The position numbers were made by a program, and so were the translations under genes. DNA of 64,000 nt from Actinomycetes bacterium (GTDB taxonomy: Bacteria > Actinomycetota > Acidimicrobiia > Acidimicrobiales > Aldehydirespiratoraceae). Shown here piece after piece: positions 3,657 through 52,881 of the stretch. The notes under the pieces were generated by a model. That model made no database searches, had not been told where the DNA came from, and worked only from the letters and a program-made list of their open reading frames with translations. Every line of letters starts with the position of its first letter. Positions within the stretch are counted from its first letter, which is position 1. Location of the stretch: the NCBI GenBank assembly GCA_024276495.1, contig JAJRXC010000013.1:6402-70401 (forward strand), read 5' to 3'.

Positions 3657-4946
3657 CTACTCGGGCCAGGGGATGCCGTAGTCGTCGAACCAGAAGCGGG
3701 CTTCGCGGATGGCGTTCTCGGGGGTGCGCCGCGAGACGTCCTGATTGAGCTGCTCGGGGGTGGGGCCGACATCGGCGGCGATCTTGGTGAGCCCGTCGAC
3801 GTCGAGGTCGTAGCAGCGCACCGCGTTGAGGCCGAGCAGCAGGCGCGTCTCCTCGACCGGCACGTTCTGGAAGTCGGTCTCGAGTCGCTCGACGGTGTTG
3901 GGCCACGAGCCTTCGGGGTGGGGATAGTCGGTGCCCCACATGAGGGCATCGACACCGTTGACGTAGCGGCGCCGGAGCTCGACCTTGCTCATGGTCGACG
4001 CCCCGATGAACACATTGGTGCCGATGTACTCCGACGGCAGCTTCTTGATCAGGTTCTTGGTGCGCGAGGCCATCTTCTTGACCTTCCAGTTCTGCCCGCC
4101 GAACACCGAGTCGGTCTTGAACAGGAGGTCGCCGAGCCACCACGAGCCGCACTCGACCGGCACGTACTTCAGGTTGGGATGCCGGTCGAACGTGCCCGAG
4201 AGGAGCAGTTGCCACAGCGGCCGATGCGTCCAGAAGGCCACCTCGAGCATGTACTGGGCCATGTTGTCGTTGTAGGCGGGCGTGTCGGCTTCACCGGAGT
4301 GGGTGTGCACGACGAGGCCGGCGTCGGCGCACGCGGCCCAGACCGGGTCGTAGTGCTCAGCGCCGTACGACGGATTGTCGTGCCACATCGTGGGGATCAT
4401 GATGCCCTTGATGCCGGGCTTGCCCGCGAGCGCCTCGATCTCCTTGACCGCCTCGTCGACACCATGGGTGATAGGAACGAGAGCGACACCGGCCCGGCGG
4501 GGCGGGTTGGTCGCACAGAACTCCTCGAGCCAGCGGTTGTGAGCCCGGGCGCCCGCCCAGGCGAGCTTCGGGTCGGTGATCGCACCGGCCGACAAACCGG
4601 CACCGAACGGCGGCGACTCCATGCCGGTCACCGCGTCGCCGTCGGCGAAGATGATCTCGCCGGCCACCCCGTCGGCGTCGAGGGTCTTGTCGCGAATCAC
4701 GGGGTCGTAGGCGCCCTTCAGGCCGATCTCGTTCTCGCGCTCCCACTGCTCGACATACTCGCCGTTGATCTCCTCGACCATGGCCCGGTGCTCGTGGCGG
4801 GTCGCGAGCCATTCGTCGAACTCGGCGTGCACGGCCGAGTCGAGATACTCGCGGTAGTCCTCGACATAGAGACCGGCGTGGGTATCGGACGAGACGATGA
4901 TGTACGGGTTGTTGCTCTGGTCGATGCCCTCGAGCGGATTCGGCAT
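3657..4946 (-). CDS. metal-dependent amidohydrolase (amidohydrolase_2 / ACMSD-like TIM barrel)
   Basis: 429-aa ORF. It has an N-terminal IIVSSDTHAG-type metal-ligand start and the length and layout of amidohydrolase-2 proteins. The family assignment is from memory only. Confidence 0.6.
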   Translation of the reverse strand: MPNPLEGIDQSNNPYIIVSSDTHAGLYVEDYREYLDSAVHAEFDEWLATRHEHRAMVEEINGEYVEQWERENEIGLKGAYDPVIRDKTLDADGVAGEIIFADGDAVTGMESPPFGAGLSAGAITDPKLAWAGARAHNRWLEEFCATNPPRRAGVALVPITHGVDEAVKEIEALAGKPGIKGIMIPTMWHDNPSYGAEHYDPVWAACADAGLVVHTHSGEADTPAYNDNMAQYMLEVAFWTHRPLWQLLLSGTFDRHPNLKYVPVECGSWWLGDLLFKTDSVFGGQNWKVKKMASRTKNLIKKLPSEYIGTNVFIGASTMSKVELRRRYVNGVDALMWGTDYPHPEGSWPNTVERLETDFQNVPVEETRLLLGLNAVRCYDLDVDGLTKIAADVGPTPEQLNQDVSRRTPENAIREARFWFDDYGIPWPE

Positions 4947-4972
4947 GGCGGGTTCCCTTGCGTCTGACTAGA

Positions 4973-5049: not shown

Positions 5050-5105
5050 CCTGCTTTTCTGACGCGTTGGTCGCGCCATACGCGATCAACGCGTCAGAAA
5101 AGCCC
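5050..5105. repeat. palindromic intergenic repeat, copy 1 (imperfect)
   Basis: GCTTTTCTGACGCGTTGGTCGCGCCATACGCGATCAACGCGTCAGAAAAGC. It shares the identical 23-mer CGCGATCAACGCGTCAGAAAAGC (5081-5103) with copies at 8466-8488 and 54395-54417. Confidence 0.85.
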
Positions 5106-7885: not shown

Positions 7886-8362
7886 TCAGCCGAGAAGCTC
7901 CGGAAGCTGCTCGGCGATCTCCTCGGGTGTCATCATCGGCGAGAACCGCTTGACGACGTCGCCCGCGGCGTTGACCAGGAACTTCTCGAAGTTCCAGGTG
8001 ATGTCGGAGGTCTCACCGTCGCCGGGCTGCTGCTCCTTCAGCCAGGTGTAGAGCTCGTGGGCGCCGTCGCCGTTGACCTCGAGCTTGGCGAACATCGGGA
8101 AATCGATGTCGTAGTTCTCGGCGACGAACGCGCGGATCTCCTCGGCCGAGCCCGGCTCCTGGGCCCCGAACTGGTTGCAAGGAAAGCCGAGAACACGGAC
8201 ACCGTTGTCGTCGTGGTGAAGCGTACGCAGACCTGCGTACTGCGGCGTCAGGCCTCAAGCGGACGCGACGTTGACAACGAGACACGCGCTGTCGGCGAAG
8301 TCGGAGAACGAGACCTGCTCCCCTTCGAGCGACATCATCTGGAATTCGTGGAAACGAGCCAT
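7886..8362 (-). CDS. glutathione peroxidase, probably selenocysteine-containing (in-frame TGA at 8255-8257 = residue 36)
   Basis: ATG at 8362 with an AAGGGG RBS. The translation is MARFHEFQMMSLEGEQVSFSDFADSACLVVNVASA-[TGA]-GLTPQYAGLRTLHHDDNGVRVLGFPCNQFGAQEP...FPMFAKLEVNG...WNFEKFLV. The TGA aligns with the peroxidatic Cys/Sec of the NVAS-[CU]-G-x-T motif, and GPx homology continues in the same frame on both sides. The track shows only the last 69 aa (7886..8095). Confidence 0.7.
8221..8243 (-). promoter_or_regulatory. candidate bacterial SECIS hairpin
   Basis: The mRNA reads UGA-GGCCUGACGCC-GC-A-GUACGCA-GGUC-UGCGUAC-GC. This gives a 7-bp upper stem, a GGUC apical loop, a bulged A and 2 further pairs, starting 11 nt after the UGA. 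Confidence 0.55.
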
Positions 8363-8433
8363 GGATCCCCTTTTGGTCGACCACCACACGGTGGATCCCG
8401 GATCGTAGCCCCTCCCTCCTTCCTTCCCTCCCT

Positions 8434-8492
8434 CCCTGCTTTTCTGACGCGTTGATCGCGCATGGCGCGATCAACGCGTCAGAAAAGCAGGG
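8434..8492. repeat. palindromic intergenic repeat, copy 2 (perfect 28-bp arms, 3-nt loop)
   Basis: CCCTGCTTTTCTGACGCGTTGATCGCGC-ATG-GCGCGATCAACGCGTCAGAAAAGCAGGG. It is flanked by a polypyrimidine tract on the left and a purine-rich tract on the right. It lies between the MoaD-like stop (8510) and the GPx start (8362). Confidence 0.9.
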
Positions 8493-8509
8493 AAAAGGCG
8501 GGGAGGTCT

Positions 8510-8758
8510 TCAGCCGCCGGTGATCGGGGCGATGAAGTGGATGTCGGTGGTCGGGCCGACCTTCTCGTAGATGCTGCCGCGGGGAAGCAGCTCACCATCG
8601 ATCGCGACGCTGGCGCCCTCGGTCAACCGCGGGCCGAGCCCCGGGAAACGACGTTCGAGCTCGGCGATGACCGCCCCGATGGTGGCGCCATCCACCTCCA
8701 GGACCTCCTCGCCGCCGGTGAAACGACGATGATCGGCCTGGAGGTGGACGATCGCCAT
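8510..8758 (-). CDS. MoaD/ThiS-family ubiquitin-like small protein (C-terminal GG)
   Basis: 82-aa ORF ending ...HFIAPITGG. Its ATG directly abuts the TAG of the upstream molybdo-hydroxylase large subunit (TAGATG). Confidence 0.7.
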   Translation of the reverse strand: MAIVHLQADHRRFTGGEEVLEVDGATIGAVIAELERRFPGLGPRLTEGASVAIDGELLPRGSIYEKVGPTTDIHFIAPITGG

Positions 8759-10996
8759 CTACTTCTCGTTGATCTTCTTCAAGACGTTCGGTGGCGACAT
8801 CGGCAGGTCGGTCATCCGCACCCCGGTAGCCGCCGCGATCGCGTTCGCGAGCGTCGGGATGGGCGGGACGATGCCGGTCTCGCCGACGCCCCGCACGCCG
8901 TAGGGATGACTCGGGTTCGGTACCTCCACGATGATCGTCTCGATCATCGGCAGATCCGACGCCACCGGCATGCGGTAGTCGAGGAAGCTCGCGTTCTCCA
9001 TCTCGCCGGACGCATCGAAGATGTACTCCTCGTTGAGCGCCCATCCGATTCCCTGGGCCGAGCCGCCCTGCATCTGACCTTCCACATAGGCCGGATGAAT
9101 CGCCGTCCCCGCGTCCTGGGCCGTGGTGTAGCGCAGGATCGTCACCTGGCCGGTCTCCTCGTCGACCTTCACGTCGGCGAGATGGGCCGCGAACGATGGT
9201 CCGGCGCCGGCCGCGTTGAGCGAGGCCGTCGCGGTGAGCGGGCCGCCGGTCATCTTCGCCTGGGCCGTGATGTCGGCGATGGTCAGCGGTTCGTTGCCCT
9301 CCGATGCCGGTCCTTCGATGACGGCGGCACCGCCGATCCACGCGACCTGGTCGACGTCGACACCTCGGATGACCGCCGCCCGTTCCTTCATCTTCTCGAT
9401 GAGCTCACGACACGCGTTGACGACGGCCATGCCGGTGGCGAACGTCGCCCGACTGCCTTCGGTGATGTCGGTGAACCCGACCGATTCGGTGTCGGCCACG
9501 ATCGGGGTGATCCGATGCACGTCGAGGCCGAGCTCCTCGGCCGCCATGAGCGCCATCGACGCACGGCTCCCGCCGATGTCGGGGCTTCCGGTGATGACCG
9601 TGGCGGTCCCGTCCTCGTTGAGGTTGACCGTGGCGCTCGACTGTTCACCGATGTTGAACCAGAAACCGGTCGCGAACCCACGACCGGCGCCCTCGGGCAC
9701 CGGTGAGTTGTAGTGGTCGGAGCTCTTGATCGCCTCGAGCGTCTCGATGAACCCGATCTTCGGATGGGGCATCCCCATCGCGGTCGGGTCGCCTTCGACG
9801 ACCGCGTTCCGAAGCCGGAGCTCGATCGGATCCATCCCGAGCTGCTGGGCGATCTCGTCGACGAGGGTCTCGACCGCGAACGCGGCCTGAGGAGCCGACG
9901 GGGCCCGATAGGCCGCCGACTTGGGTGTGTTGTCGACCGTGCCGATCGCGTGGAGCTCGAGATTGGGGAACTTGTAGGACGCCACCGACATCGCCCCGGT
10001 CAACGCCGAGAACCCCTTGGTCGAGCCGTTGGAGTAGTACATCGTGCCGGCCAGCGTGGTGAGCTCACCGTCGTTGGTCGCACCGATCTTCAGGCTGATC
10101 TTCGACGCCGGCGCGGGGCCGGTCGCCCGCAGCACCTCTTCACGGGTCATGGCGAGCTTCACCGGACGTCCGGCCTTCTGCGACAACCGCACCGCGATCG
10201 GTTCGAGATAGATCGTGGTCTTGCCACCGAATCCGCCGCCGATCTCGGCCGGTGTGACCTTGATGCGGTCGGTGCTCCAGCCCAGAATCGCCGCGGTCTT
10301 GGAACGCACCGCGAAGTGGCCCTGCGACGACGCCCAGATCGACGCCTTGCCGTCCTGGCCGCAGTCGGCGACACACGCGTGCGGTTCGATGTATCCCTGA
10401 TGAACCGGGACGGTGGTGAACTCGCGTTCGACGATCACGTCGGCGGCCGCGAAGCCGGCCTCGACGTCGCCACGTTCGAACTGGCCGATCGACGCGAAGT
10501 TCGACGGCTCGGTGTCGCCGGTGAACAGGGTGCGGGTGGTCGGGTTGGCGAGCGGGGCGCCGTCGGCGATCGCCTCGTCGATGCTGAGGATCGCCGGCAA
10601 CTCCTCGTACTCGACCTTCACCGCGGCGGCAGCGGCGCGCGCCTGGGCGAGTGTCGTCGCGGCGACCGCGGCGACCGCATGTCCGTTGTACAGCACCTCG
10701 TCGCGGGCGATGTTGTTGACCGCTTCGTCGTGGATCGCATCGGCGATGTCGATCTCGGGGAAATCGGCTCCGGTCACGACGGCCTTCACTCCCGGCATCG
10801 CCTCGGCCGCGCTCGTGTCGATCGACACGATCCGGGCATGGGCGTGAGGGGACCGCGTGATCGCGGCCCGGAGCTGACCGGTCATGTTGAGATCCGCGGC
10901 GAAACGGGCCTTGCCGGTCACCTTGTCGAGTCCGTCGTGACGGATCGGCCGGGTACCGACGTACTTGTAGGTGGGGCGGGCCTCGGTGTCGGTCAC
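8759..10996 (-). CDS. xanthine dehydrogenase/aldehyde oxidase family, molybdopterin-binding large subunit
   Basis: Track ORF 8759..11338 trimmed to GTG 10996 (GTGA overlap with the small-subunit stop). The N-terminus YKYVGTRPIRHDGLDKVTGKARFAAD and the about 745-aa length are typical of CoxL/XdhB-like subunits. Confidence 0.85.
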   Translation of the reverse strand: MTDTEARPTYKYVGTRPIRHDGLDKVTGKARFAADLNMTGQLRAAITRSPHAHARIVSIDTSAAEAMPGVKAVVTGADFPEIDIADAIHDEAVNNIARDEVLYNGHAVAAVAATTLAQARAAAAAVKVEYEELPAILSIDEAIADGAPLANPTTRTLFTGDTEPSNFASIGQFERGDVEAGFAAADVIVEREFTTVPVHQGYIEPHACVADCGQDGKASIWASSQGHFAVRSKTAAILGWSTDRIKVTPAEIGGGFGGKTTIYLEPIAVRLSQKAGRPVKLAMTREEVLRATGPAPASKISLKIGATNDGELTTLAGTMYYSNGSTKGFSALTGAMSVASYKFPNLELHAIGTVDNTPKSAAYRAPSAPQAAFAVETLVDEIAQQLGMDPIELRLRNAVVEGDPTAMGMPHPKIGFIETLEAIKSSDHYNSPVPEGAGRGFATGFWFNIGEQSSATVNLNEDGTATVITGSPDIGGSRASMALMAAEELGLDVHRITPIVADTESVGFTDITEGSRATFATGMAVVNACRELIEKMKERAAVIRGVDVDQVAWIGGAAVIEGPASEGNEPLTIADITAQAKMTGGPLTATASLNAAGAGPSFAAHLADVKVDEETGQVTILRYTTAQDAGTAIHPAYVEGQMQGGSAQGIGWALNEEYIFDASGEMENASFLDYRMPVASDLPMIETIIVEVPNPSHPYGVRGVGETGIVPPIPTLANAIAAATGVRMTDLPMSPPNVLKKINEK

Positions 10997-11478
10997 TTCG
11001 ACGCTCCGTTCAGCTGAACCGCCGCCTCTTGCACGGCGTGGATGATCTTGTCGTAGCCCGTGCACCGGCAGAGATTGCCGGCGAGGGCGTAGCGGATCTC
11101 GGCCTCGGTCGGATTCGGATTGTGGTCGAGTAGCGCCTTGGCCGAGACGAGAACCCCCGGCGTGCAGATGCCGCACTGCAACGCGGCTTCCTCGAGGAAC
11201 ACCTGCTGCAGCGGATGGAGATGGTCGCCGTCGGCGATCCCCTCCACCGTGGTGATCTCGTGGCCCTCGGCTTCGGCCGCGAACATCAGGCAGGCGCAGT
11301 TGACCGCGCCGTCGACGAGAATCGAGCAGGCACCGCAATCGCCGGTCGCGCAGCCCTCCTTGGCCCCGGTGAGACCGAGCTCGTCTCGCAACGCGTCGAG
11401 CAGGGAAGTGGCATCGTCGGCGAGGAAGTCGACCTCGTCACCGTTGACGGTGCAATGGACGTGGGTGCGGCTGATCAT
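10993..11478 (-). CDS. (2Fe-2S)-binding small subunit of molybdo-hydroxylase
   Basis: Track ORF trimmed to ATG 11478 (MISRTHVHCTVNG...). It has the two cluster motifs CATGDCGACS and CGICTPG...CRCTGY. Confidence 0.9.
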   Translation of the reverse strand: MISRTHVHCTVNGDEVDFLADDATSLLDALRDELGLTGAKEGCATGDCGACSILVDGAVNCACLMFAAEAEGHEITTVEGIADGDHLHPLQQVFLEEAALQCGICTPGVLVSAKALLDHNPNPTEAEIRYALAGNLCRCTGYDKIIHAVQEAAVQLNGASK

Positions 11479-36269: not shown

Positions 36270-38782
36270 TCAGTCGGCGGACTCGAGCGGCTCGTCGTCG
36301 CTCTCGCCGTCATCCTCGTCGTCGATGGTGACCAACGCGATGGACGCAACCGTATCGTCGTCGTCCGGGCTCATCACCTTCACTCCGCTGGCCGACCGGC
36401 CCTGCTCGGAGATGGTGTCGACCCGGGTGCGGATCAGCACTCCCGAGGCGGTCATGGCGAGGATCTCGTCGTCGTCGTCGACCATCAGGGTGCCGACGAC
36501 CTCACCCTTCTCCTCGGTGACCTTGATGCCGATCACGCCCATGCCGCCGCGCCCCTTGCGGGGATACTCGTCGACCGGCGAACGTTTTCCGTAGCCCTTG
36601 GTGGTGATGTGGAGCAGCGCCGCGCCGTCGCGGGCGATGTCGCAGGCGACGACATCGTCGCCGGGCTTCTTGAACTTGAGGCCGATCACGCCGGCCGCGT
36701 TGCGTCCCATCTCGCGAACCTGGGCCTCGTCGAACCGGATCGTCTGGCCGAGGCGGGACGACAACAAGATGTCGTAGCGGCCGTTGGTGGGGATCACCTC
36801 GACCAGCTCGTCGTCGTCGTTGAGCTTGATCGCGATCAGCCCGGCCCGCAACGACGAGTCGTAGGCGTTGAAGCGGGTCTTCTTCACCCGTCCCTTGGCG
36901 GTCGCGAAGAACAGGTAGCGGTTGGTCTCGTAGTCGCGGGTGTCGATGATCGCCTGGATGCGTTCGTCTTCCTGCAGCGGCAACAAGTTGACGATCGCGG
37001 TGCCGCGGGCCGTGCGCGACGCCACCGGGATCTGATGGGCCTTGAGCCGGTAGACCCGGCCGCGGGTCGAGAAGAACATCAGGTACGAATGCGCGGTCGT
37101 CGAGATGAGGTGGGTGAGGGTGTCCTCGTCTTTGAGCTTCGTGCCCGCGATCCCCCGGCCGCCCCGGCCCTGGGTCCGGAACTCCTCGGCCGGCACCGTC
37201 TTCACGTAGCCGGACGCCGACATCGTGAACACGAGCGGGTCGTCGTCGATCAGGTCCTCGATGTCGAACTCGCCGGGGTCGATCTCGAGCGCGGAGCGCC
37301 GATCCTCACCGAACTTCTCGCGAACCACGCCCAGTTCCTCGACGATGACGGTGCGGAGCTTGGCATCGTCGCCCAGGATCTCCTGGAGATCGGTGATCGT
37401 CTCTCGGAGGTCGCCGGCCTCGGACTCGAGGTCGGCGCGACCGAGTCGGGTGAGCCGACCCAGCTGCATGTCGAGGATGTGGTTGGCCTGCACCTCGCTG
37501 AACTCGAACGGCTCCGCCATCAAGGCGGTGCGGGCCGCGCCGCGATCGTCGCTGGCCCGGATCGTGGCGATGATCTCGTCGATCAGATCGAGGGCCTTGA
37601 TCAGCCCTTCGACGATGTGGAGTCGCTTCTCGGCCTGATCGAGGCGGTACTCCGAACGACGGGTGATGACCTCGATCTGGTGATCGACATAGGCGACCAA
37701 CGCGTCGCGCAGGGTGAGGGTGCGGGGCACACCTCCGACCAGGGCCACCATGTTGACCCCGAAGCTGGTCTGCAGCGGCGTGCTCTTCCACAGGTTGTTG
37801 AGCACGACCTCGGGGTTGGCGTCGCGCTTCAAGGTGATGACGAAACGGGTGTCGTCGCCCGACGATTCATCGTTGACGTTGGCGATGCCCTCGAGCTCGT
37901 TGTTGCGGACCAACTCCACGATCTTGCGGGCGACGGCTCCCGCGGACACCTGATACGGGAACGCGGTGACCACGATCTCCTGCCGGTTGCCTTTCTCGCG
38001 AAGCTCGGTACTGGCCCGCATCTTCACCGAGCCCCGGCCGGTGCGATAGGCCGATTCGATGCCGACCCGGCCGAGGATCTGTCCGCCGGTCGGGAAGTCG
38101 GGACCCTTGACGAACTCCATCAGGTCGTCGGTGGTCGCGTCGGGGTTCGCCAACAGGTGGGTGACCGCGTCGCACACCTCGTTGAGGTTGTGGGGTGGGA
38201 TGTTGGTGGCCATGCCGACCGCGATGCCCTGACTGCCGTTGACCAGCAGGTTCGGGAACCGGGCCGGGAGCACGAACGGTTCGGTGAAGTCGCCCGAGTA
38301 GTTGTCGACGAAATCGACGGTGTTCTCGTCGATGTCGGCCAGCATCTGCATCGCCAGGGGATGGAGCTTGCACTCGGTGTAGCGCGCCGCGGCGGGCGGA
38401 TCCTCCGGCGAGCCGTAGTTGCCGTGGAAGTCGATGAGGGGATGGCGCAACGAGAAGGGCTGGGCCATGCGGGCGAGGGCGTCGTAGATCGCGTTGTCGC
38501 CGTGGGGATGGAAGCGGGCCATGACATCGCCGGTGACCCGGGCGCATTTCACGTGGGCCCGATCGGGGCGGAAGCCCTGATCGAACATCGACCACAGGAT
38601 GCGGCGATGCACGGGCTTCAACCCGTCGCGGGCATCGGGAAGGGCCCGGCTGATGATGACCGACATCGCATAGTCGAGAAAGGAGCTCTCCATCTCCTCC
38701 TGGATCTCGATGACGGTGACGTCGTCGGGTTCGCCGTCGTTCTCGAGATCGTCCAGGTCGCTCGGAGGCGGGGTGTCACTCA

Positions 38783-38783
<1 letters not shown>
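36270..38783 (-). CDS. gyrA: DNA gyrase subunit A
   Basis: 837-aa ORF with [26 protein letters not shown], the catalytic-Tyr region AAARYTE, and a C-terminal beta-pinwheel with an acidic tail. Confidence 0.97.
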
Positions 38784-40837
<2,054 letters not shown>

Positions 40838-40962
40838 CGTCGCACTCCGAGATCGGTGTCACGACGGTGAATCGCGGGAGTCTCCGGGGAAGGGATGGCG
40901 CCCTTGGGACGCTGGGAGAACAGCCCGAACACGGTGCTTCGAGTGTAGCAGTTACACCCCTG

Positions 40963-41283
40963 TCATTTGCGCCTCGCGACCCGCACCTCGAGCGTGCGAA
41001 CCCGGTTGGTTCCCGCCACCTCGGTAAGCCGTTCGAGCACCTCTTTCTCGAGCCAACGGAGCTCGCTCGCCCAGGTCGGATCGCTCGCCTCGACGACCAG
41101 GGTCGCGCCGTCGATCGACACCGGCCGGCTGTGCGCCGCCACGTCGTCGCCGACGATCAGCGCCCATTTCGTGAACACGCTGTCGAGCACGTCGACCGAC
41201 GGGGCCCGCAACGTCCCCAGCAGCTGCTCGAGGGATCGACCCAGTCGAAACGGACCACGATCACCGCTCACGCGCTGACCCAT
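40963..41283 (-). CDS. dciA: DUF721 protein (DciA, Rv0004-like)
   Basis: Track ORF 40963..41358 trimmed to ATG 41283 (alternative GTG 41271). It has W..IVGDDVAAHSRPVSIDGATLVVEASDPTWASELRWLEKEVLERL. It sits between recF and gyrB as in other Actinobacteria. Confidence 0.75.
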   Translation of the reverse strand: MGQRVSGDRGPFRLGRSLEQLLGTLRAPSVDVLDSVFTKWALIVGDDVAAHSRPVSIDGATLVVEASDPTWASELRWLEKEVLERLTEVAGTNRVRTLEVRVARRK

Positions 41284-42409
41284 CGGACACCACCGGATCG
41301 GGACCGTCGATGACACCGGCGGCCCCGGTGCTGATCTCGGTGACAGTTCCTGCGGCAACCTTCAGCACCCGATCAGGGCTCGCGGCCGGCGGCAACCACG
41401 CGGCGGTCGTCAGGAGCCGCTGGCCGTCCGGGAGCGCGTCGAGCAGGGCCTCGGCCCGGCCCGGATCGAGCTCGGAGAAGACGTCGTCGAGCAACAGCAC
41501 GGGCTCGGCGACACCCGACCGGCGAACGACGGTGTCAGCCGCCAGTCGCAGGGCGAGAGCAAGCGAGCGTTGTTCCCCCTGGGAACCGTGGGTCCGAGCC
41601 GGCGCACCCCCGATGCGCAACGCGATCTCGTCACGATGCGGCCCCACCGTGGAAACACCCCGGCGAACGTCGAGATCCCGGTTCTCGATCAACGCCTCGG
41701 CGAGGTCCCCCTCCCAACTCGACTGGTAGCGCGCCTCCACCTCGGCGTGTCGACGGGCAACCGCGTCATAGGCCGCCGACATCTGGGGGACCGCTTCGGC
41801 GAGGAACGCAAGCCGAGCATCACGGACCGCCGTCCCGATCGTCGCGAGCTTCGTGTCCCAGACATCGAGGGTGAACGCAGCGTCACCGTCGAGTCGGCCG
41901 TGCACCGACCGCAACAAGGCGTTGCGTTGCTTCAACACCCGCTCGAGATCGGTGCGCAACGCCTCGTGCTTGGGATGTCGACCGACGAGTGCCTCGTCGA
42001 TCCATCGCCGGCGCAACGCCGGCCCCCCCTTCACCAGCTCGAGGTCGTCGGGGGAGAACACCGTGACCTGGAGAACACCGAGCAGGTCACGGGCCCGGGA
42101 CACCCGCTGTCGGTTCAACTGGATCCGATTGCGGCCCACCCGGGGCAGTTCGACCTCGATGAGTTGCTCACGACCGTCGGACCCCACCACGGTGGCCCTG
42201 ATGACCGCCGCCGCGGCACCGATCCGGATGAGCGCATCGTCGGGCACGCCACGAAACGAACCCATCCTCGCGAGCCAACCGATCGCCTCGAGCAGGTTGG
42301 TCTTCCCTTGCCCGTTCTCACCGACGATCGCGGTCAACCCGTCGGAGAGACGAAGGGAGACCGATTCGTACGAGCGGAAGTCCCGAAGCTCGAGCGTTCG
42401 GATCAACAC
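41261..42409 (-). CDS. recF: DNA replication/repair protein RecF
   Basis: 382-aa ORF with LRDFRSYE and the Walker A GENGQGKTNLLEAI, plus the signature and Walker B (LLLDDVFSELD). Confidence 0.95.
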   Translation of the reverse strand: MLIRTLELRDFRSYESVSLRLSDGLTAIVGENGQGKTNLLEAIGWLARMGSFRGVPDDALIRIGAAAAVIRATVVGSDGREQLIEVELPRVGRNRIQLNRQRVSRARDLLGVLQVTVFSPDDLELVKGGPALRRRWIDEALVGRHPKHEALRTDLERVLKQRNALLRSVHGRLDGDAAFTLDVWDTKLATIGTAVRDARLAFLAEAVPQMSAAYDAVARRHAEVEARYQSSWEGDLAEALIENRDLDVRRGVSTVGPHRDEIALRIGGAPARTHGSQGEQRSLALALRLAADTVVRRSGVAEPVLLLDDVFSELDPGRAEALLDALPDGQRLLTTAAWLPPAASPDRVLKVAAGTVTEISTGAAGVIDGPDPVVSDGSARER

Positions 42410-42457
42410 GGGATCACCCGGCGATCCTCGACGTCGCTATGGACCCGCATCGGGATC

Positions 42458-43564
42458 TCAGCTGACGCGTACGGGCATCAACAGGTAGAGGAAGTCGGGA
42501 TCCTGCGCCGACTTGAGAAGGGCCGGTTTCAACTCGTCGACGGTCTCGAGGGTGATCTCGTCGCCGGGAGCCACTTCGATCCCGTCGATCAGATACTCCG
42601 GGTTGAACGCGACGGTGAGATCGTCGCCCTTGTAGATCGCGTCGTCGACGGCTTCATGGGCCTGGCCGACATCCTGGGTGACCGCGACGAGCTCCAGCCC
42701 GTCGGCCGACATGGCCAACCGGATCGGCGTCGACTCCTGGGCCAGAAGGCGGACACGACGAACCGCGTCGAGCAGGGTGAGTCGGTCGACGGTCAGCTGG
42801 TTCGGGTGATTCGTGGGGATCAATCCCCGATAGTTGGGGAAATCACCCTCGATCAGTCGAGTCGTGATCGACACCGCACCGACTTGGAAGCCGGCATCGC
42901 GCTCGCCCAGCCGGAGCGTGATCTGCTCATCGTCGTCGCCGATCACGCGGGCGAGCTCTTTGAGGGCTCGACTCGGGACGAGGACCTTCTGCCCCTCGCC
43001 GAGCACGGTGGTCCCGGCCAGATCCCGTACGGAGAGCCGGTAGGAGTCGGTCGACACGAGCCGGAGCCCGTCTTCTTCCGCGGCCATCAACACGCCGGTG
43101 AGGATGGGGCGGGCGTCGTCGGATGACGCAGCCTTCTCGACCTGTTCGATCGCGGCCTTGAAGGCCTCCGCGTCGAGGGTCACCGCGTCCCCGTCGGGAC
43201 TCGACAACTCGGGGAACTCATCGGCGGGAATCACCCGGATCGCGAACTCCGAGGGTGCCGCGACGATGCGGGCGTCCTCGTCTTCGACGGTGATCTCCAC
43301 CCCACCGGCCCGCAACGACCGGACCACATCGGAGGCGAGCTTCGACGGCAGGACGGCGACCCCGTCCTCGACGCCGGCGACATCGATCGTGACGGAGATC
43401 GTCAGGTCGAGATCGCTGCCGGTGACGGTCAGCTGGTCACCGTTCAACACGAGGCGCACGCCGGCGAGAACAGGAAGCGCGCCGCCCCGGGTGGTGACGG
43501 CTCGGCCGGCATCGGCGAGGGCTTTAGCGAGGACATCGCGTTCGCAGCGGAACTTCAGGCCCAT
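42458..43564 (-). CDS. dnaN: DNA polymerase III beta sliding clamp
   Basis: 368-aa ORF. Its position after dnaA and its MKF-type start and three-domain length are typical. Confidence 0.93.
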   Translation of the reverse strand: MGLKFRCERDVLAKALADAGRAVTTRGGALPVLAGVRLVLNGDQLTVTGSDLDLTISVTIDVAGVEDGVAVLPSKLASDVVRSLRAGGVEITVEDEDARIVAAPSEFAIRVIPADEFPELSSPDGDAVTLDAEAFKAAIEQVEKAASSDDARPILTGVLMAAEEDGLRLVSTDSYRLSVRDLAGTTVLGEGQKVLVPSRALKELARVIGDDDEQITLRLGERDAGFQVGAVSITTRLIEGDFPNYRGLIPTNHPNQLTVDRLTLLDAVRRVRLLAQESTPIRLAMSADGLELVAVTQDVGQAHEAVDDAIYKGDDLTVAFNPEYLIDGIEVAPGDEITLETVDELKPALLKSAQDPDFLYLLMPVRVS

Positions 43565-43850
43565 GATGGTGTTACTTCTCCCTGTCGTATGGACTCATCT
43601 TCAATAGAAGTCCATAGGGCTTGTGGATTGTGGAAGGAACCGAGTTTGCCGTGGAATGACACGGATCGCGCGTCCCCACGTCGTCCCCGCGCGCGCACAG
43701 TGTGGGACAGATGCGGTGCGCCGGTGGTGGATATCTCCCCGATTGTGCACGGTTCGTCCACTTCCGACGCACCCTCGGTCCCCAGTCTTCTCCCCACGCG
43801 GGCGCGTCGGGTGGAGTGGTCATGGGTGCGCGGACGCCGGCCGGGGAGGC
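43565..43850. other. candidate oriC segment (dnaA-dnaN intergenic DnaA-box cluster)
   Basis: 286 bp non-coding. DnaA-box-like 9-mers are TTGTGGATT (43621), TGTGGAAGG (43630), GGTGGATAT (43725) and TTCGTCCAC (43753). A relatively AT-rich stretch at 43571-43640 lies next to the dnaN start. Confidence 0.6.
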
Positions 43851-45221
43851 TCATGACGGGTGGTTGAGTCGATGCTGGAGTTCGGTGACCTTGTCGAAGA
43901 TCTGTTGGCGTTCACCCATGCGAGCCTCGATCTTGCGAACCGCGTGCATGACGGTCGTGTGGTCGCGGTTGCCGAACGCCTTGCCGATGTCGGGGAAGGA
44001 GAGGTCGGTCATGTTGCGAGTCACGTACATGGCGACCTGGCGAGCGTCGACGAGCGGGCGTCGCCGGCTGCCGCCGGTGATCTGTTCGACATCGAACCCG
44101 AACATCTCCGCGGTGAGATCGATGATGCGTGCCGCGGTCACCGGTGGCTTCTCGGCGTTGGCGATGAGGTCGCTGAGGACGAGGGCGGTCAGGTCGAAGT
44201 CGAGCGGTTGTTGGGTGAGGTTGGCGTAGGCGGTGACCTTGATCAGTGCGCCCTCGAGCTCGCGGATGGAGTCCTTGATGTTCTCGGCGATGAACGAGAA
44301 GACGTCGTCGGGGATGTTGATCGTCTTCGACTCGGCCTTCTTGCGCAGGATCGCGAGTCGGGTCTCGAGGTCGGGTCGTTGGATGTCGGGGATGAGACCC
44401 CACTTGAACCGGTTCCGCAGGCGGTCCTCGAGGGTGGGCATGGCATCGGGAGTCCGGTCCGACGACAACACGATCTGTTTGTCGTTTTGGTGCAGCTCGT
44501 TGAAGGTGTGGAAGAACTCCTCTTGGAGACCTTCTTTCCCCTCCATGAACTGGATGTCATCGATCAACAAGACATCGTTGTCTCTGTAGCGTCTCTTGAA
44601 CTCGGGTTGGGTGTTCGTGCGGATCGCCTCGACGAACTCGTTGAGGAACGTCTCGGTCGACACATAGCGGACCCGGTACGAGGGATAGTGATCGGCGACA
44701 TAGTGGGCGATGCCCCGCAGGAGGTGGGTCTTGCCCAATCCGGAGTCGCCGTGGATGAACAGCGGGTTGTAGCTCGCAGCCGGCGTCTCCGCCACCGCGA
44801 GCGCAGCCGCATGGGCGAAGCGGTTCGACGGGCCGATGACGAAGTGTTCGAACGTGAACTTCTCGTCGCGGCCTCGTTCGAGACCGGCGACGATCGCGGG
44901 CGCCGGCAACGGATCGTGTGGTGTCCGCAGATCGGCGGCCGGAACATCGAACGCGACCTCGTCCCAATCGGTGTCGATCTCCACCCGAACGGTGATGTCG
45001 GTGCTCGTCTCCTGGATGGCGTCTTGAACCAGCCCCAGGTAGCGCCCTTCGATGCGCTCCTTTTGCAGGCCGTTCGGCACCACGATCACGAGCTCACCCT
45101 CGTCGAACGCCACCGCCTTGGCACCACTGAACGTGGTTCGCCACACCGCGTCGCTCAACTGGGCGCGGATGCTCTCCGCGCACGTGGTCCACAGACCGCC
45201 GGCGTCACCTAATTCGTCCAC
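43851..45221 (-). CDS. dnaA: chromosomal replication initiator DnaA
   Basis: 456-aa ORF with a GTG start. It has the Walker A GDSGLGKTHLL, AAA+ domain III, and the domain IV DHTTVMHA DNA-binding motif. Confidence 0.97.
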   Translation of the reverse strand: MDELGDAGGLWTTCAESIRAQLSDAVWRTTFSGAKAVAFDEGELVIVVPNGLQKERIEGRYLGLVQDAIQETSTDITVRVEIDTDWDEVAFDVPAADLRTPHDPLPAPAIVAGLERGRDEKFTFEHFVIGPSNRFAHAAALAVAETPAASYNPLFIHGDSGLGKTHLLRGIAHYVADHYPSYRVRYVSTETFLNEFVEAIRTNTQPEFKRRYRDNDVLLIDDIQFMEGKEGLQEEFFHTFNELHQNDKQIVLSSDRTPDAMPTLEDRLRNRFKWGLIPDIQRPDLETRLAILRKKAESKTINIPDDVFSFIAENIKDSIRELEGALIKVTAYANLTQQPLDFDLTALVLSDLIANAEKPPVTAARIIDLTAEMFGFDVEQITGGSRRRPLVDARQVAMYVTRNMTDLSFPDIGKAFGNRDHTTVMHAVRKIEARMGERQQIFDKVTELQHRLNHPS

Positions 45222-45480
45222 GTGTCATCCTGTCTCCACAGCCGTGTCCACAGGTGTGGACGACTCGTCGTTCTCCCTCCGGCCGAATGCGGCGACGGAT
45301 GGCGAAAATGCCAAACACCACAGGTGCACTCCGACCGGCGTGGGCGCGCAACATAGCAATGCTGTGGATAGCTGCAAGCCGGAGCATCGGTGACGCGCGA
45401 AAGACCAGCACAGATGCCGTTTTCCGGAATCGAATTACACGGGTGGAAGATCAGATTACATCGCTGTCGTTCAAAGGGAT
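45222..45480. other. DnaA-box cluster and AT-richer tract upstream of dnaA (promoter/autoregulation or second oriC segment)
   Basis: GTGTCCACA (45244-45252) faces TGTGGAC (45255-45261), with TGTCTCCACA (45231-45240) and TGTGGATAG (45363-45371; 8/9 to the reverse of TTATCCACA). An AT-richer segment lies at 45418-45478. Confidence 0.55.
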
Positions 45481-45641
45481 CGGCCCGGGACCCCGCCCGA
45501 GCGGCGCGGCGACCTTCGATGGCGTGGTTGCTGAGCAAGTCTCACGCCCATACCGTGACGGGTTGACGTCATCGGTTCCCACCATCGGAACCGTTCTTTC
45601 CCGCGGTGCCGATCCTCGCCCGCGGCGTTCGGAGGACCACA

Positions 45642-45776
45642 ATGAAGCGGCCGTATCAGCCCAACGTGCGCAAACGGGCAAAGAAGCATGGATTTCGTTC
45701 GCGCATGAGCACTCGTGGAGGACGAGCCGTTCTCCGGTCTCGCCGCCAGAAGGGGCGCGCTCGGCTGTCGGCGTGA
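45642..45776 (+). CDS. rpmH: 50S ribosomal protein L34
   Basis: Not in the track (44 aa). ATG at 45642, 5 nt after a GGAGGA RBS. It translates to [44 protein letters not shown]. Confidence 0.95.
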
Positions 45777-46132
45777 TCGGTCGTCTCTCGGGCCCGGCGG
45801 CCTTCGCTCGTCTTCGTACCGAGGGCGTCCGGTCCGGCCGGGGCCCGATCCGACTGGTCTCTCGGCCTGACCCCACCCAACCACCGCGCATCGCGTTCGC
45901 GATCCCACGTAAAGTGGGAAACGCGGTGCAGCGGAACCGGGTTCGGCGCCGCATTCGAGCGGTACTGTCCGAGCTCGAACGGGAGGATCCCGGGTTTCCG
46001 AAGCCCGGTGATCATCTCATCCGGGTCACCGCACCGATCGACAACTGGTCCCATGCCACACTGCGCACCACGATGCATTCCCTCCTGAGCACCGAAACCG
46101 AGGCCGACGAGAGTTCGGGCGTCGCCCGATGA
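45773..46132 (+). CDS. rnpA: ribonuclease P protein component
   Basis: GTG 45773 overlaps the rpmH stop (GTGA), in the frame of track ORF 45254..46132. It has [26 protein letters not shown] (RNR motif). Confidence 0.85.
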
Positions 46133-46371
46133 GCCCACTCGCGCGCCTGCTTCGTTCCGCGGTGCGCGGGTATCAGCGAGCGTTCTCGGGCCGGCCCTCG
46201 CCGTGTCGTCATGTCCCGTCCTGTTCCACCTACGCAGTCGAGGCCCTCGAGGGTCACGGCGCGATTCGCGGCGGTTGGCTCGCCACGAAACGTCTCTGCC
46301 GGTGCAATCCGTGGGGAACCCACGGATATGACCCCGTCCCTGCCTCCCAGGAGTCCACATGTTCGACCTGA
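46129..46371 (+). CDS. yidD: membrane protein insertion efficiency factor YidD
   Basis: 80-aa ORF with [30 protein letters not shown]...RLCRCNPW. Confidence 0.9.
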
Positions 46372-47507
46372 TCGGCTCGATCCTCGCCTTCTTCTACGAC
46401 AACATGGGGAACTCCTACGGCGTGGCCGTGATCCTCCTCACCCTCGCCGTGATGCTCGTCTCGACGCCGTTGACGTTGAAGAGCACCAAGTCGATGTTGC
46501 AGATGCAGCGACTGCAGCCGGAGCTGAAGGCCATTCAGAACCGGTACAAGGACGATCGTCCGAAGATGAACGAAGAGCTGATGGCGTTCTACCAGGAGAA
46601 CGGCATCAACCCCTTGGGCGGCTGTCTCCCGATGCTGATCCAGCTCCCGATCTTTTTGGTGCTGTTTCGTGTCGTTCAGGGCATCACCAAGCGAAGCACC
46701 GACTTCGGCAACCAGTTCGGATGGACGACCGGTCGCTTCGGCACGGGCGGACCCCTCGACGCCACCACCCGCGCCTCATCCGAACAGATGTTCGAGCCAC
46801 AGAACCTGCCGACCGACAGTCAGATGTTCCAGGATCTCGTGCGCGAGAACGAGATGGTGTCGTGGGGCATCGATCTCTCCCGTTCGGCCCAACAGGCGCT
46901 CGGCGACAACATCATCAGCGCGCTCCCCTATCTGCTGCTCATCGTCATCGTCTTGATCTCGAGTCTCTATCAACAGCGCCAGATCCAGGGTCGCAACACC
47001 GGCGCCCAGGTCAACCCACAACAGCAGATGATCATGAAGTTCCTGCCGTTCATGCTGCCGGTGTTCAGTTTCACGATGCCGGCCGCGCTGGTCGTCTACT
47101 TTGTCATCTCCAACCTGTATCGCATCGGTCAACAGGCGTACATCACCCAGTCGCTGTACAAGGGCGAGGACAGTCCCGGTGCCCAACTGGCCAAGCAACG
47201 GGCGAAGGAGAAGACGGGGGCCAAGGGCGGTGGTGGAGGACGAACCACACCGAAGAAGGGCGGACCGACGAGAAAACGGGCCGACGCGCCGACGAAGGGA
47301 ACGTCCGCCAAAGGCAAGACCAAGGGCGGTGCGAAGGCGACGAACAAGAAAACGACGAAGAAGAAGCCGGCGGGGAAGAGCGCGGCGGGCAGAAGCGCCA
47401 AGGGCACCGGAGCCGGACGAACCGGCAGGGCCCCGAGCCGACACAACCGCGGCGGTGGACGCACCACCGACCCCGGTTCACCACAACACAAGAAACGCAA
47501 GCGGTAG
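46359..47507 (+). CDS. yidC: membrane protein insertase YidC
   Basis: 382-aa ORF with the conserved core ...[51 protein letters not shown] and a long Lys/Gly-rich basic C-terminal tail. Confidence 0.93.
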
Positions 47508-47594
47508 CCGTCGAGCACGGCCGGCCCGCGTCATCGCGGGTCGGCCCTGCACCTGGGACGGGGCTTGCGTCAAACGACAAGAGGAGAGAACGCG

Positions 47595-48599
47595 ATGGAA
47601 TGGGTGGAAAGCACCGGAGCATCGATCGATGAAGCCAAGGAACGGGCATTGGACCGGCTCGGCGTCCACGGCGACGATGCGGAGTTCGAGATCATCTGTG
47701 ACGTGACGACCGGTCTGTTCGGGCGGGTGAAGGAAGAGGCCCGGGTTCGGGCCCGGGTCGCGCCGGCCACACCGCGAGCCAAGGACGAGCGCCGGGGGCG
47801 TGGTCGCAACCGCGGCGGAAAAGGCGGTGGTCGAGGCAATGGACGGGGCCGCAGTCAAGGTGGCGATCGCGACAACCGTGGCGGCGGTGGTCAGAAGGCT
47901 GCCTCCCAAAAGGGTGGGTCGAAGAACGGTGGATCCCAAAAGGGAGGATCCCGACGCGGGTCGGGGGAGAAGGGCCGTGGCAACGGCCGCAACGACGACG
48001 CCACCGAGCGTGCAGCCAAGAAGACGAGACAGTCCGAGACACACAACGCCAGCTCGCGTGGCGGGAAGAGAGACAACACCATGAACGACGACGAGGGCGC
48101 AACCACGATGCCGCTCCCCCAGCAGGCCGACCTGGCGGAGGAGTTCGTCCGGGGCCTGGCCGAACGGTTCGGCACGCAGGTGGAGTTCTCCCGGGAGGAC
48201 ATCGACGACGACGAGATTCGCATCACGGTCTCGGGAAACGATCTCGGCCGGATGATCGGTCGACGGGGAACGACGGCCGGTGCGATCGACGAGCTGGTCC
48301 GTACGGTCCTGCAACGACAGGCCGGCAGCAGCCGCAACGGCCGGATCCGTGTCGACGTGGGCGGTGTGCGGGCCCGTCGGGCCGAGGCGCTGGCGAACTT
48401 CGCCCGAGCGCAGGCCGCCGAAGTCCGTTCCTCCGGCAGCGCACGCTCGCTCGAGCCGATGTCGGCCGCGGACCGCAAGATCGTCCACGATGCCCTGAGC
48501 GATGAAGAGGGCGTCGAGACAGTGTCCGAAGGCGAGGATTCGCAGCGTCGCGTGGTGATCGTCGTCGCAGAGGGTGCGCCGACGGAGGCTGATGACTGA
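47595..48599 (+). CDS. jag: Jag/KhpB RNA-binding protein (Jag_N, KH, R3H)
   Basis: Track ORF trimmed to ATG 47595 (GAGGAG RBS). It has the N-terminal EAKERALDRLGV Jag_N domain, a long RGG/KGG-rich linker, then KH (GRMIGRRGTTAGAIDELV) and R3H (SAADRKIVHDAL) domains. Confidence 0.88.
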   Translation: MEWVESTGASIDEAKERALDRLGVHGDDAEFEIICDVTTGLFGRVKEEARVRARVAPATPRAKDERRGRGRNRGGKGGGRGNGRGRSQGGDRDNRGGGGQKAASQKGGSKNGGSQKGGSRRGSGEKGRGNGRNDDATERAAKKTRQSETHNASSRGGKRDNTMNDDEGATTMPLPQQADLAEEFVRGLAERFGTQVEFSREDIDDDEIRITVSGNDLGRMIGRRGTTAGAIDELVRTVLQRQAGSSRNGRIRVDVGGVRARRAEALANFARAQAAEVRSSGSARSLEPMSAADRKIVHDALSDEEGVETVSEGEDSQRRVVIVVAEGAPTEADD

Positions 48600-49218
48600 A
48601 CCCGACTGGGCCGCGCTGGACGCTGCCTGGGCCCCGGCCCGAGCGGCCGGCGTGCTCGGCTCGGCGACAACGACGGAGTTGGTGGACCACGCGGCCGGGT
48701 TTGTCCCGGCCGCGTGGCGCGTCTCGCCGGCGTTTCTGGGTGTCGATCTCGGGACCGGCGCCGGCGTTCCGGGTCTCTTGCTGGCCCTCGGGCATCCAGG
48801 GTCCCGCTGGTTGTTGGTCGAGTCGAACGCTCGTCGTGCCGCGCTGGCCCGAGCTGCCGTGCGGGCGACCGGATGCGGGGATCGTGTCGATGTGCGACAC
48901 ATCCGGGCCGAGGACCTCTGCCGGGATCCGAACTGGCGGCAGGGCGCCGACCTGGTCGTGGCCCGGTCCTTCGGTCCGCCCGCCGAAGTCGCCGAATGTG
49001 GTCTTCCGCTTCTCCGCGCCACCGGACGCCTGGTGGTGTCGGTGCGCGCGTCGACCGAGGAGCGATGGCGAGCCGGCGCCGACGGGCTGCTCCCCTTCGC
49101 GGTCACCGACGTGTGGTCGACCTCGGCGGGCCGTTACCTGGCGGTCGAGACGGTGGGTGAGATTGACGATCGTTTCCCGCGGCGCACGGCGGCTCGACGC
49201 CGGCGTCCGGTGTTCTGA
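48592..49218 (+). CDS. rsmG: 16S rRNA (guanine527-N7)-methyltransferase RsmG/GidB
   Basis: Track ORF trimmed to ATG 48592. It has the SAM motif LGVDLGTGAGVPGLLLAL and the conserved position between jag and parA. Confidence 0.88.
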   Translation: MTEPDWAALDAAWAPARAAGVLGSATTTELVDHAAGFVPAAWRVSPAFLGVDLGTGAGVPGLLLALGHPGSRWLLVESNARRAALARAAVRATGCGDRVDVRHIRAEDLCRDPNWRQGADLVVARSFGPPAEVAECGLPLLRATGRLVVSVRASTEERWRAGADGLLPFAVTDVWSTSAGRYLAVETVGEIDDRFPRRTAARRRRPVF

Positions 49219-49229
49219 GCGCGTCGCGC

Positions 49230-49245
49230 TGTTTCACGTGAAACC
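49230..49245. other. parS centromere-like site 1
   Basis: TGTTTCACGTGAAACC; 15/16 to the tGTTNCACGTGAAACa consensus, with a perfect 14-bp palindromic core. Confidence 0.85.
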
Positions 49246-49325
49246 GCGCGCGGTGTCGCGCCGATCGATCCGTCGTCGAGGACGTCGTCGGGGCGGCTCG
49301 ACCTGGCGGTGATGGACCGGAGGGG

Positions 49326-49341
49326 TGTTTCACGTGAAACG
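49326..49341. other. parS centromere-like site 2
   Basis: TGTTTCACGTGAAACG; the same 14-bp core, 96 bp after site 1 and upstream of parA. Confidence 0.85.
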
Positions 49342-49463
49342 TCTCGCCCGGCGACCTGGTCCATCGCGCGGTGGTGATCGACCGACGCGGCCGCGCAGAG
49401 ACCCGGCCCGACCGTGGGTGTTTTCCACAACGGTCCTTGACCCTTGGTGCGCCAGCGGGGAGG

Positions 49464-50312
49464 ATGTCACGGTTCCGAAGCGCGAGTGCTTCGATGAAGG
49501 GAGAGTGCCTCGTGGCATTCCTGCAAGAGGATGCGACAGCCGCGTCCGGTCCCCGGATCTTCGCGGTGGCGAATCAGAAGGGAGGAGTGGGAAAGACCAC
49601 GACGACCGTGAACCTCGGTGCGTGTTTCGCGGAGCTCGGCCAACGAGTGCTGATCGTGGATCTCGATCCTCAGGCCAACGCGAGCACCGGGTTGGGCCTG
49701 AATCCCCGCCAGCTCGACCATTCGTTGTACGACGTCTTGTTGCACGACGTCCCCATTGAGGACGTGATCGAACCGGTGTCCGTCAAGAATCTCTATGTGG
49801 CACCCGCGAGCCTGGATCTTGCCGGCGCGGAGATCGAGCTGGTGCCGGCGCTCAACCGGGAGCGCCAACTCAAGGAAGCGATCGCCGCGGTTGCCGGCGA
49901 CTACGACATCGTGTTGATCGACTGTCCCCCATCACTCGGTCTTCTTACCATCAACGGTCTCACCGCAGCCAACGAGGTGCTCGTCCCCATCCAGACCGAG
50001 TACTACGCACTGGAAGGCCTCGGGCAGCTCATCCGAAACGTCGACCTCGTCACCCGCAATCTCAACCCCACGCTGGTGCTCAGCACGATCGTCCTGGTGA
50101 TGTTCGATGCGCGGACCAAGCTCTCTGGCCAGGTCGCCGATGAGGTTCGGGCCCATTTCGGCGACAAGGTGTGTCGTCAGGTGATTCCGCGGACCGTCCG
50201 ACTGAGCGAGGCGCCGAGCTTCGGGCAGCCGATCACGGCATTCGATCCGATGTCGCGCGGCGCGATCGCGTATCGTGAGCTTGCAAAGGAGATCCTCGGT
50301 GGCGAAGCGTAG
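49464..50312 (+). CDS. parA: chromosome partitioning ATPase ParA/Soj
   Basis: Frame of track ORF 49371..50312. It has the deviant Walker A IFAVANQKGGVGKTTT and DLDPQANAS. The start is uncertain (ATG 49464 or 49494). Confidence 0.9.
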   Translation: MSRFRSASASMKGECLVAFLQEDATAASGPRIFAVANQKGGVGKTTTTVNLGACFAELGQRVLIVDLDPQANASTGLGLNPRQLDHSLYDVLLHDVPIEDVIEPVSVKNLYVAPASLDLAGAEIELVPALNRERQLKEAIAAVAGDYDIVLIDCPPSLGLLTINGLTAANEVLVPIQTEYYALEGLGQLIRNVDLVTRNLNPTLVLSTIVLVMFDARTKLSGQVADEVRAHFGDKVCRQVIPRTVRLSEAPSFGQPITAFDPMSRGAIAYRELAKEILGGEA

Positions 50313-52454: not shown

Positions 52455-52781
52455 CTAGAGGAACTCGGCGACGTCGTCGAGCAGCGCCTGCTTCGGCTTG
52501 GCGCCGATGATCCGCGTCGCTTCCTCGCCGTCCTTGAACAAGATCATGGTGGGGATGCTCATGACCTCGTAGCGACGGGCGATCTCCGGGGCGTCGTCGA
52601 CGTTGAGCTTCGCGATCTTGATCACGTCGCCCTTCTCGTCGGCGATCTCCTCGAGGATCGGAGCGATCATCTTGCAGGGGCCGCACCACTCGGCCCAGAA
52701 ATCGACCAGGACCGGAGTGGAGGAACTGCCGATCTCCTCGTCGAAGGTTGCGTCCGAGAGGTGGGGTAGGGCTCCGGCCAT
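52455..52781 (-). CDS. trxA: thioredoxin
   Basis: Track ORF 52455..52814 trimmed to ATG 52781. It has the active site WAEWCGPCK. Confidence 0.93.
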   Translation of the reverse strand: MAGALPHLSDATFDEEIGSSSTPVLVDFWAEWCGPCKMIAPILEEIADEKGDVIKIAKLNVDDAPEIARRYEVMSIPTMILFKDGEEATRIIGAKPKQALLDDVAEFL

Positions 52782-52881
52782 GGGGTTGGTCTCTTTCTGT
52801 CGAACCGTGGGCATGATCGGTGGACCATGTGCAGGGAAGGAACGTTGCGGACGTGCCGACTATTCCCTTCCGGTGCCGACC

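Follow-up and report, generated by a model that had tools for sequence, protein, structure and literature searches.

The window analysed here, which is the whole 64-kb stretch of DNA, spans the neighbourhood of the chromosomal replication origin (36270-51204) together with metabolic genes. The origin genes dnaA (43851-45224), dnaN, recF, gyrB and gyrA are located on the minus strand, and yidC, jag, rsmG, parA and parB on the plus strand. The genes trxB and trxA are found at 52455-53847.

The gene under study lies on the minus strand at 7886-8362 and is predicted to encode a selenocysteine-containing glutathione peroxidase (Sec-GPx). The complete coding sequence has 158 sense codons and a terminal TGA at 7888-7886, as defined by its translation, the match to the Pfam GSHPx model and an N-terminus that is conserved among the orthologues. 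A purine run, AAGGGG at 8367-8372, precedes the ATG at 8362 by 4 nt and, from its sequence, may serve as a Shine-Dalgarno element. When the frame was re-read from this ATG to the terminal stop, exactly one internal stop was encountered, a TGA at 8257-8255 (codon 36), precisely as stated in the preliminary description. The codon is flanked by LVVNVASA and GLTPQY, and the motifs FPCNQFGAQEP and WNFEKFLV follow downstream in the same frame. The open reading frame and its UGA are direct readings of the DNA. The TGA occupies the peroxidatic position of the UxxT motif, which in the homologues described below is Cys (TGC/TGT) in 33 genes and TGA in 48, and it is taken here to be read as selenocysteine.

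With Cys substituted at codon 36, the translation matched Pfam PF00255 (GSHPx) over residues 4-109 with E=2e-37 and 127.5 bits, the cut-off being 27. The best NCBIfam match was the glutathione peroxidase NF007900 (E=3.8e-47), whose 160 bits stay below the equivalog cut-off of 270, and the closest solved structures were those of GPx4 (E about 1e-39). Apart from the recoded residue the tetrad is complete and consists of U36 (NVASAUG), Q68 (GAQEP) and W123-N124 (WNFEKF); that these are the catalytic residues we take to be established GPx knowledge. The Gln68 codon is at 8159-8161 and the Trp123-Asn124 codons are at 7991-7996, both on the minus strand, and they were aligned to GKQEP and WNFTKF, respectively, of a de novo design based on the GPX4 structure 2OBI. 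The domain match and the intact remaining tetrad residues bear out the earlier proposal that the TGA falls on the peroxidatic residue within a GPx signature. By the domain model and the tetrad alike, the product is assigned to the glutathione peroxidase family, and it is predicted to be a peroxidase of about 17 kDa that resembles the monomeric GPx4.

The only Cys residues are C27, which is variable among the orthologues, and C62 of the FPCNQF motif, which is conserved. In the 2-Cys, thioredoxin-dependent type of GPx the resolving Cys is expected in a helix about 43-48 residues past the peroxidatic residue. No conserved resolving Cys was found in the GPx sequence and its orthologues, where residues 79-84 read FVAENY in the present protein.

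The hairpin downstream of the TGA

Beyond the TGA the mRNA can fold into a hairpin with a stem of 7 bp, GUACGCA/UGCGUAC, and an apical GGUC loop. This core is located at 8223-8240 on the minus strand with the loop at 8233-8230, and its assignment as a conserved bacterial SECIS is based on covariation, RNAalifold, synonymous-site entropy, a metagenome scan and the use of rare codons. The gap from the UGA is 14 nt to the stem and 21 nt to the loop, and the hairpin is translated as Y-A-G-L-R-T. The local hairpin of 26 nt folded with -11.7 kcal/mol (z=-3.27), and only 1 of 200 shuffled sequences folded as well. The wider stretch of 68 nt around it was not more stable than its shuffles (z=+0.82), so that only the local hairpin is notable. 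The exact 18-mer of the hairpin was found once in the window, where 0.00 occurrences were expected.

The hairpin was compared with the model for bacterial SECIS elements (bSECIS) that is given in the legend of Fig. 2 in PMC13188914. The model has an apical loop of 3-9 nt and an upper stem of 4-16 bp, for which we found 4 nt (GGUC) and 7 bp. It requires a G within the first two loop positions, which are GG here, and a distance of 16-37 nt from the UGA to the loop, into which the observed 21 nt fall. The minimum free energy should be -7.5 kcal/mol or lower and was -11.7 kcal/mol. A check with a bacterial SECIS model had been suggested in the preliminary description, and the hairpin agreed with the published model in every point.

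The codons that spell the hairpin are rare in this genome, which has a GC content of 68%. GCA makes up 4.6% of the Ala codons, GGT 18.7% of the Gly codons and CGT 11.7% of the Arg codons, and for the encoded amino acids this particular choice of codons has a joint probability of about 5e-5. A search of Rfam gave no match at the gathering thresholds for the window as a whole, and in the region 8100-8400 none even with E allowed up to 10; this is uninformative, since no Rfam family matched the element. Bacterial SECIS elements have been described as poorly represented in Rfam (Actinomarina preprint, bioRxiv 10.64898/2026.04.03.716425).

In the hairpin as first proposed, the stem was extended downwards by two GC pairs below a bulged A. 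In the present gene this extension, a G-C and a C-G pair, is part of the minimum-energy fold (8221-8243, minus strand). The two pairs form in only 9 and 26, respectively, of the 48 distinct orthologous sequences, and the lower stem with its bulged A was rejected as a functional part because it is not conserved. The 7-bp stem and the GGUC loop of the proposal were conserved and are retained.

Conservation of the TGA and the hairpin

Orthologues were collected from one genome per bacterial or archaeal species, and the best 80 loci yielded 81 GPx genes. The catalytic codon is TGA in 48 of these closest genes and TGC or TGT in the other 33. The TGA genes belong to Actinomycetota (25, almost all Acidimicrobiia), to Gammaproteobacteria and other Pseudomonadota (21; OM182, Pseudomonadales) and to Myxococcota (2). 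Isolates among the actinomycetotal carriers are Ilumatobacter nonamiensis YM16-303 (locus L016) and Salinilacustrithrix flava. The preliminary description had expected Sec-containing GPx to be uncommon in actinobacterial-type genomes, but it is not rare in this class, as 25 of the 29 Actinomycetota genes among the best 81 have the TGA.

The same hairpin was found at the same distance from the TGA in all 48 TGA orthologues, that is in 49/49 with the window gene, and the Cys homologues lack it. An alignment to orthologues had been named earlier as a check, and its outcome supports the initial reading. The hairpin alignment comprised these 49 sequences, 48 of them distinct, and from it RNAalifold independently predicted exactly this 7-bp helix. 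All 7 pairs form in 48 of the 49 TGA genes, whereas Cys genes reach no more than 1-5 of the 7. Among the 48 distinct sequences 99.7% of the pair cells are standard pairs, and sliding the 3' partners abolished the pairing.

Substitutions within the stem preserve the pairing. The pair U19-A34 is changed to the wobble pair U-G in 17 genes, and one gene (L053) has two wobble pairs in the hairpin. A compensatory change of G22-C31 to A-U was observed in 4 genes (L021, L037, L040, L055), where the peptide YAGLR becomes YTGLC. Residues 43 and 46 change together (Ala/Arg with Thr/Cys), which may come solely from the pairing of their codons in the stem, and the RNA hairpin may in this way dictate part of the protein sequence of Sec-GPx. 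Both the covariation and the strict co-conservation with the TGA were observed directly.

The entropy at third codon positions was determined inside and outside the hairpin, with columns numbered from the T of the TGA. Inside the hairpin (columns 16-36) it was 0.29 bits in the 49 TGA genes versus 1.36 bits in the 33 Cys genes. In the flank before the hairpin (columns 4-15) the values were 1.63 bits for TGA and 1.25 bits for Cys genes, and in the flank after it (columns 37-60) they were 1.65 and 1.48 bits, respectively. Judged from these sequences, the hairpin is under purifying selection at the RNA level, and this in the TGA genes only.

The reading frame was analysed for signs of decay. In the region from 30 codons upstream to 60 codons downstream of the TGA, none of the 49 TGA genes contains another stop or a frameshift. 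Together with the GPx motifs that continue in one frame on both sides of the codon, this upholds the earlier statement that neither frameshift nor decay is present. Before the TGA, a stretch of 30 codons shows the variation of coding sequence, the entropies being 0.96, 0.67 and 1.42 bits for the first, second and third codon position, respectively.

A scan of metagenomes with the hairpin alone (CAGTACGCAGGTCTGCGTRC) returned at least 120 loci, and a TGA exactly 15 nt upstream within N[VL]AS-x was present in 119 of the 119 that could be assessed.

Probable selenocysteine insertion and alternative explanations

We consider it highly probable, at about 0.93, that the GPx gene is intact and that its peroxidatic residue is selenocysteine (U36), encoded by the UGA and an in-frame SECIS. 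Since the hairpin agrees with the bSECIS model in all points, the canonical mechanism is the most likely one. The hairpin would act as a bacterial SECIS during translation, with SelB·GTP·Sec-tRNA(Sec) binding to the GGUC apical loop. With the UGA positioned in the A site, SelB would bring in the Sec-tRNA(Sec), so that Sec would be inserted and termination avoided, and the ribosome would then melt the hairpin while reading its six codons. At the terminal UGA of the gene, which is without such a hairpin, normal termination would occur. In the enzyme the selenolate, activated by Q68, W123 and N124, would reduce hydroperoxides and be converted to a selenenic acid, which would be recycled by a thiol reductant. 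We infer that SelB binds the element, that Sec is inserted and that selA, selB, selC and selD are located elsewhere in the genome.

The Sec machinery was searched for in the surroundings of the GPx genes. A Pfam scan found no SelA, SelB or SelD domains among the about 47 ORFs of the 64-kb window, and ARAGORN detected no tRNA-Sec in the window and none at the 48 TGA-GPx loci. With the E. coli SelA, SelB and SelD proteins, tblastn gave no matches in the window or in the 1.17 Mb of sequence that flanks the GPx genes; within this span GPx and the sel genes are not linked. ARAGORN called a 90-nt tRNA-Val (gac) at 4587-4676 on the minus strand, inside the Amidohydro_2 ORF 3657-4967; it has no Rfam tRNA match at the gathering threshold, is probably a false positive and is not a tRNA-Sec.

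Genes of the machinery are reported from related genomes. Ilumatobacter coccineus and I. nonamiensis YM16-303 are listed as SelD+/SelA+/SelB+ with 15 and 10 selenoproteins, respectively, in a survey of more than 5200 genomes, 13 of which were counted as having Sec-GPx (Peng et al. 2016, PMC5029168 Tables S1-S3). The latter strain carries an orthologous gene with TGA and hairpin (L016). All 84 complete genomes of Actinomarina are reported to contain selA, selB, selC and selD, and the Actinomarinales belong to the same class (bioRxiv 10.64898/2026.04.03.716425). The Secmarker supplements hold no entry for Ilumatobacter or Acidimicrobiia, and the text of the BSepDB paper mentions neither GPx nor Actinobacteria. 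The presence of the gene implies Sec decoding and a need for selenium in this organism.

Could the TGA instead be a recent nonsense mutation of TGC or TGT that killed a Cys-GPx, with the hairpin being a coincidence? A close syntenic relative (L082) indeed has TGT at this codon, and the 64-kb window holds no Sec machinery. This reading is already contradicted by the comparative data and we regard it as very improbable: 48 species-level genomes of three phyla retain the TGA without secondary lesions, and purifying selection acts on the hairpin RNA in the TGA genes only. The Cys relative itself retains the hairpin and nests within the Sec clade, which argues for a change in the direction from Sec to Cys. 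We give as little credit to a selenium-free decoding of the UGA, in which a near-cognate or suppressor tRNA or a reassigned code would place Trp or Cys there. Several database orthologues were deposited with W at the site, namely the full-length entries P0004, P0008, P0019, P0021, P0022, P0026 and P0030. The contig of P0004, however, carries TGA, so that its Trp comes from the translation table chosen by the pipeline, and an enzyme with Trp as its peroxidatic residue would be inactive. TGA is also the terminal stop of 38 of the 47 Pfam-supported ORFs in the window, GPx included, and as the usual stop it shows that the code is not reassigned and that the recoding must depend on context. A reassignment would moreover leave the conserved hairpin of the SECIS model unexplained.

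Least probable of all, and hardly to be credited, is an error of sequencing or assembly, or a split gene that is translated from an internal start into no more than a C-terminal fragment. Gene callers do put out fragments of 69-121 aa, but the same TGA is present in independent assemblies from 48 genomes and in 119 metagenome contigs. A C-terminal fragment would miss the catalytic residue, and the variation of the 30 codons before the TGA is that of coding sequence. The recoded, intact Sec-GPx therefore remains our preferred reading of the gene.

The exchange between Sec and Cys was followed within the family. In a neighbour-joining tree all TGA genes form one clade apart from the sampled Cys homologues, with two Cys genes nested inside. 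One of the nested genes is a tandem paralogue beside a Sec copy in an Ilumatobacteraceae MAG (JBEBGL010000007.1; L072:3001-4050), where a Cys copy (TGC 3106) is immediately followed by the Sec copy (TGA 3573) with its conserved hairpin. The other is the syntenic relative mentioned above (L082:3383-3835; SnoaL_4, ADC, TetR and Amidohydro_2 neighbours), which keeps an intact hairpin despite its TGT, pointing to a recent change from Sec to Cys. A further gene (L081:1484-1960) has CGA (Arg) at the Sec codon and an intact hairpin, and this CGA is either an error or a dead allele. The hairpins of L081 and L082 look like fossil SECIS elements after a recent codon change. As relatives with TGT and with CGA both have an intact hairpin, the Sec state is evolutionarily labile.

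The 18-nt SECIS is near-invariant in the Sec-GPx clade, and its apex equals that of the E. coli fdhF SECIS. In the literature searched, no description was found of such a near-invariant 18-nt element across Acidimicrobiia, Gammaproteobacteria and Myxococcota. We tentatively suggest, as a possibility that is rather less probable than even, that the clade represents a self-contained cassette of UGA and hairpin that moved between these phyla and could be used by any resident SelB through the near-universal GGUC signal.

Relation to known systems and annotation

Bacterial Sec-GPx proteins with a UxxT motif were described from Treponema denticola and from Sargasso Sea sequences in 2005-2006 (PMC1088965, PMC1794560). 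A 2026 review lists the bacterial GPX-like selenoproteins as 'predicted with high confidence', apart from the entries before that heading (PMC13188914). The present gene shares with this family the GSHPx domain, Sec at the peroxidatic position of UxxT and abundant Cys homologues. It also has the SECIS in the coding region just past the UGA and a G that starts a small apical loop. There is no essential difference, the present copy being located in a high-GC Acidimicrobiales genome, and the gene is a further member of this already known selenoprotein family. The mechanism is textbook bacterial Sec recoding and nothing conceptually new is implied. The value of the gene lies in its annotation and in the record of a highly conserved SECIS from a clade of Sec-GPx genes common among Acidimicrobiia.

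The fold and the motifs are also those of the Cys-type bacterial GPx (BtuE-like; NF007900), which differs in having Cys instead of Sec as the peroxidatic residue and no hairpin in the Cys homologues. With mammalian GPx4, the closest solved structure, the protein shares the monomer type without the long oligomerisation-loop insertion and the Sec/Gln/Trp/Asn tetrad. The eukaryotic SECIS of GPx4, in contrast, is located in the 3'-UTR and works with SBP2 and eEFSec, whereas the element described here is in-frame and of the bacterial type.

The SECIS of E. coli fdhF likewise lies in the coding sequence downstream of the UGA, and its apical 10-mer (GCAGGUCUGC), with the GGUC loop closed by GCA/UGC, is identical to the one found here; the host protein is unrelated. 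Of 5426 E. coli genomes, 5419 contain the fdhF SECIS 46-mer (TGACACGGCCCATCGGTTGCAGGTCTGCACC…) under fdhF. Counted from the T of the TGA, GCAGGTCTGC is at +19 to +28 in fdhF and at +22 to +31 in the present gene, which is one codon further, and the loop is shifted by 3 nt from +22-25 to +25-28. The preliminary description had placed the fdhF 10-mer with its GGUC loop one codon closer to the UGA, and the E. coli genomes proved this right. The fdhF stem reads GGU-bulged U-GCA, whereas the bulged U is missing here and 7 uninterrupted pairs follow the 14-nt spacer. The further features of the fdhF-type minihelix beyond the apex were not found in the hairpin; from the E. coli literature we take them to be required there. 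In view of the missing bulged U and the shift of 3 nt, we regard the hairpin as a separate element that would work in the manner of the fdhF SECIS.

Gene callers were expected in the preliminary description to truncate the gene, and this is the case. The supplied ORF track contains only the C-terminal 69 aa, and about 36 of the best 120 database matches begin right behind the TGA and are mere fragments of 101-121 aa; others are full-length and carry Trp at the site. As standard callers split or mistranslate the gene, too few copies are counted of what is the main selenoenzyme for peroxide detoxification in many Acidimicrobiia and marine Gammaproteobacteria. The invariant hairpin used for the metagenome scan (119/119) offers an easy DNA marker of high specificity by which Sec-GPx can be recognised in such data.

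The region upstream of the GPx start contains several further elements. A small ORF of 82 aa (8510-8758, minus strand), which has no NCBIfam match, adjoins the gene for a molybdenum subunit of the xanthine dehydrogenase family (8759-11437). Between this ORF and the GPx start lies an intergenic palindrome with perfectly complementary arms of 29 nt at 8433-8461 and 8465-8493 (TCCCTGCTTTTCTGACGCGTTGATCGCGC and its complement), separated by a spacer of 3 nt. A C-rich and a G-rich run border it on opposite sides, and it looks REP-like or terminator-like. Related copies are centred near 5078 and 54392, and 7 arm matches were found where 0.34 were expected by chance. The probable 5' leader of GPx contains, next to the palindrome on its downstream side, a polypurine tract (8400-8432; GGGAGGGAGGGAAGGAAGGAGGGAGGGG in the sense of the minus strand) with several G-runs of at least 3, which might form a G-quadruplex.
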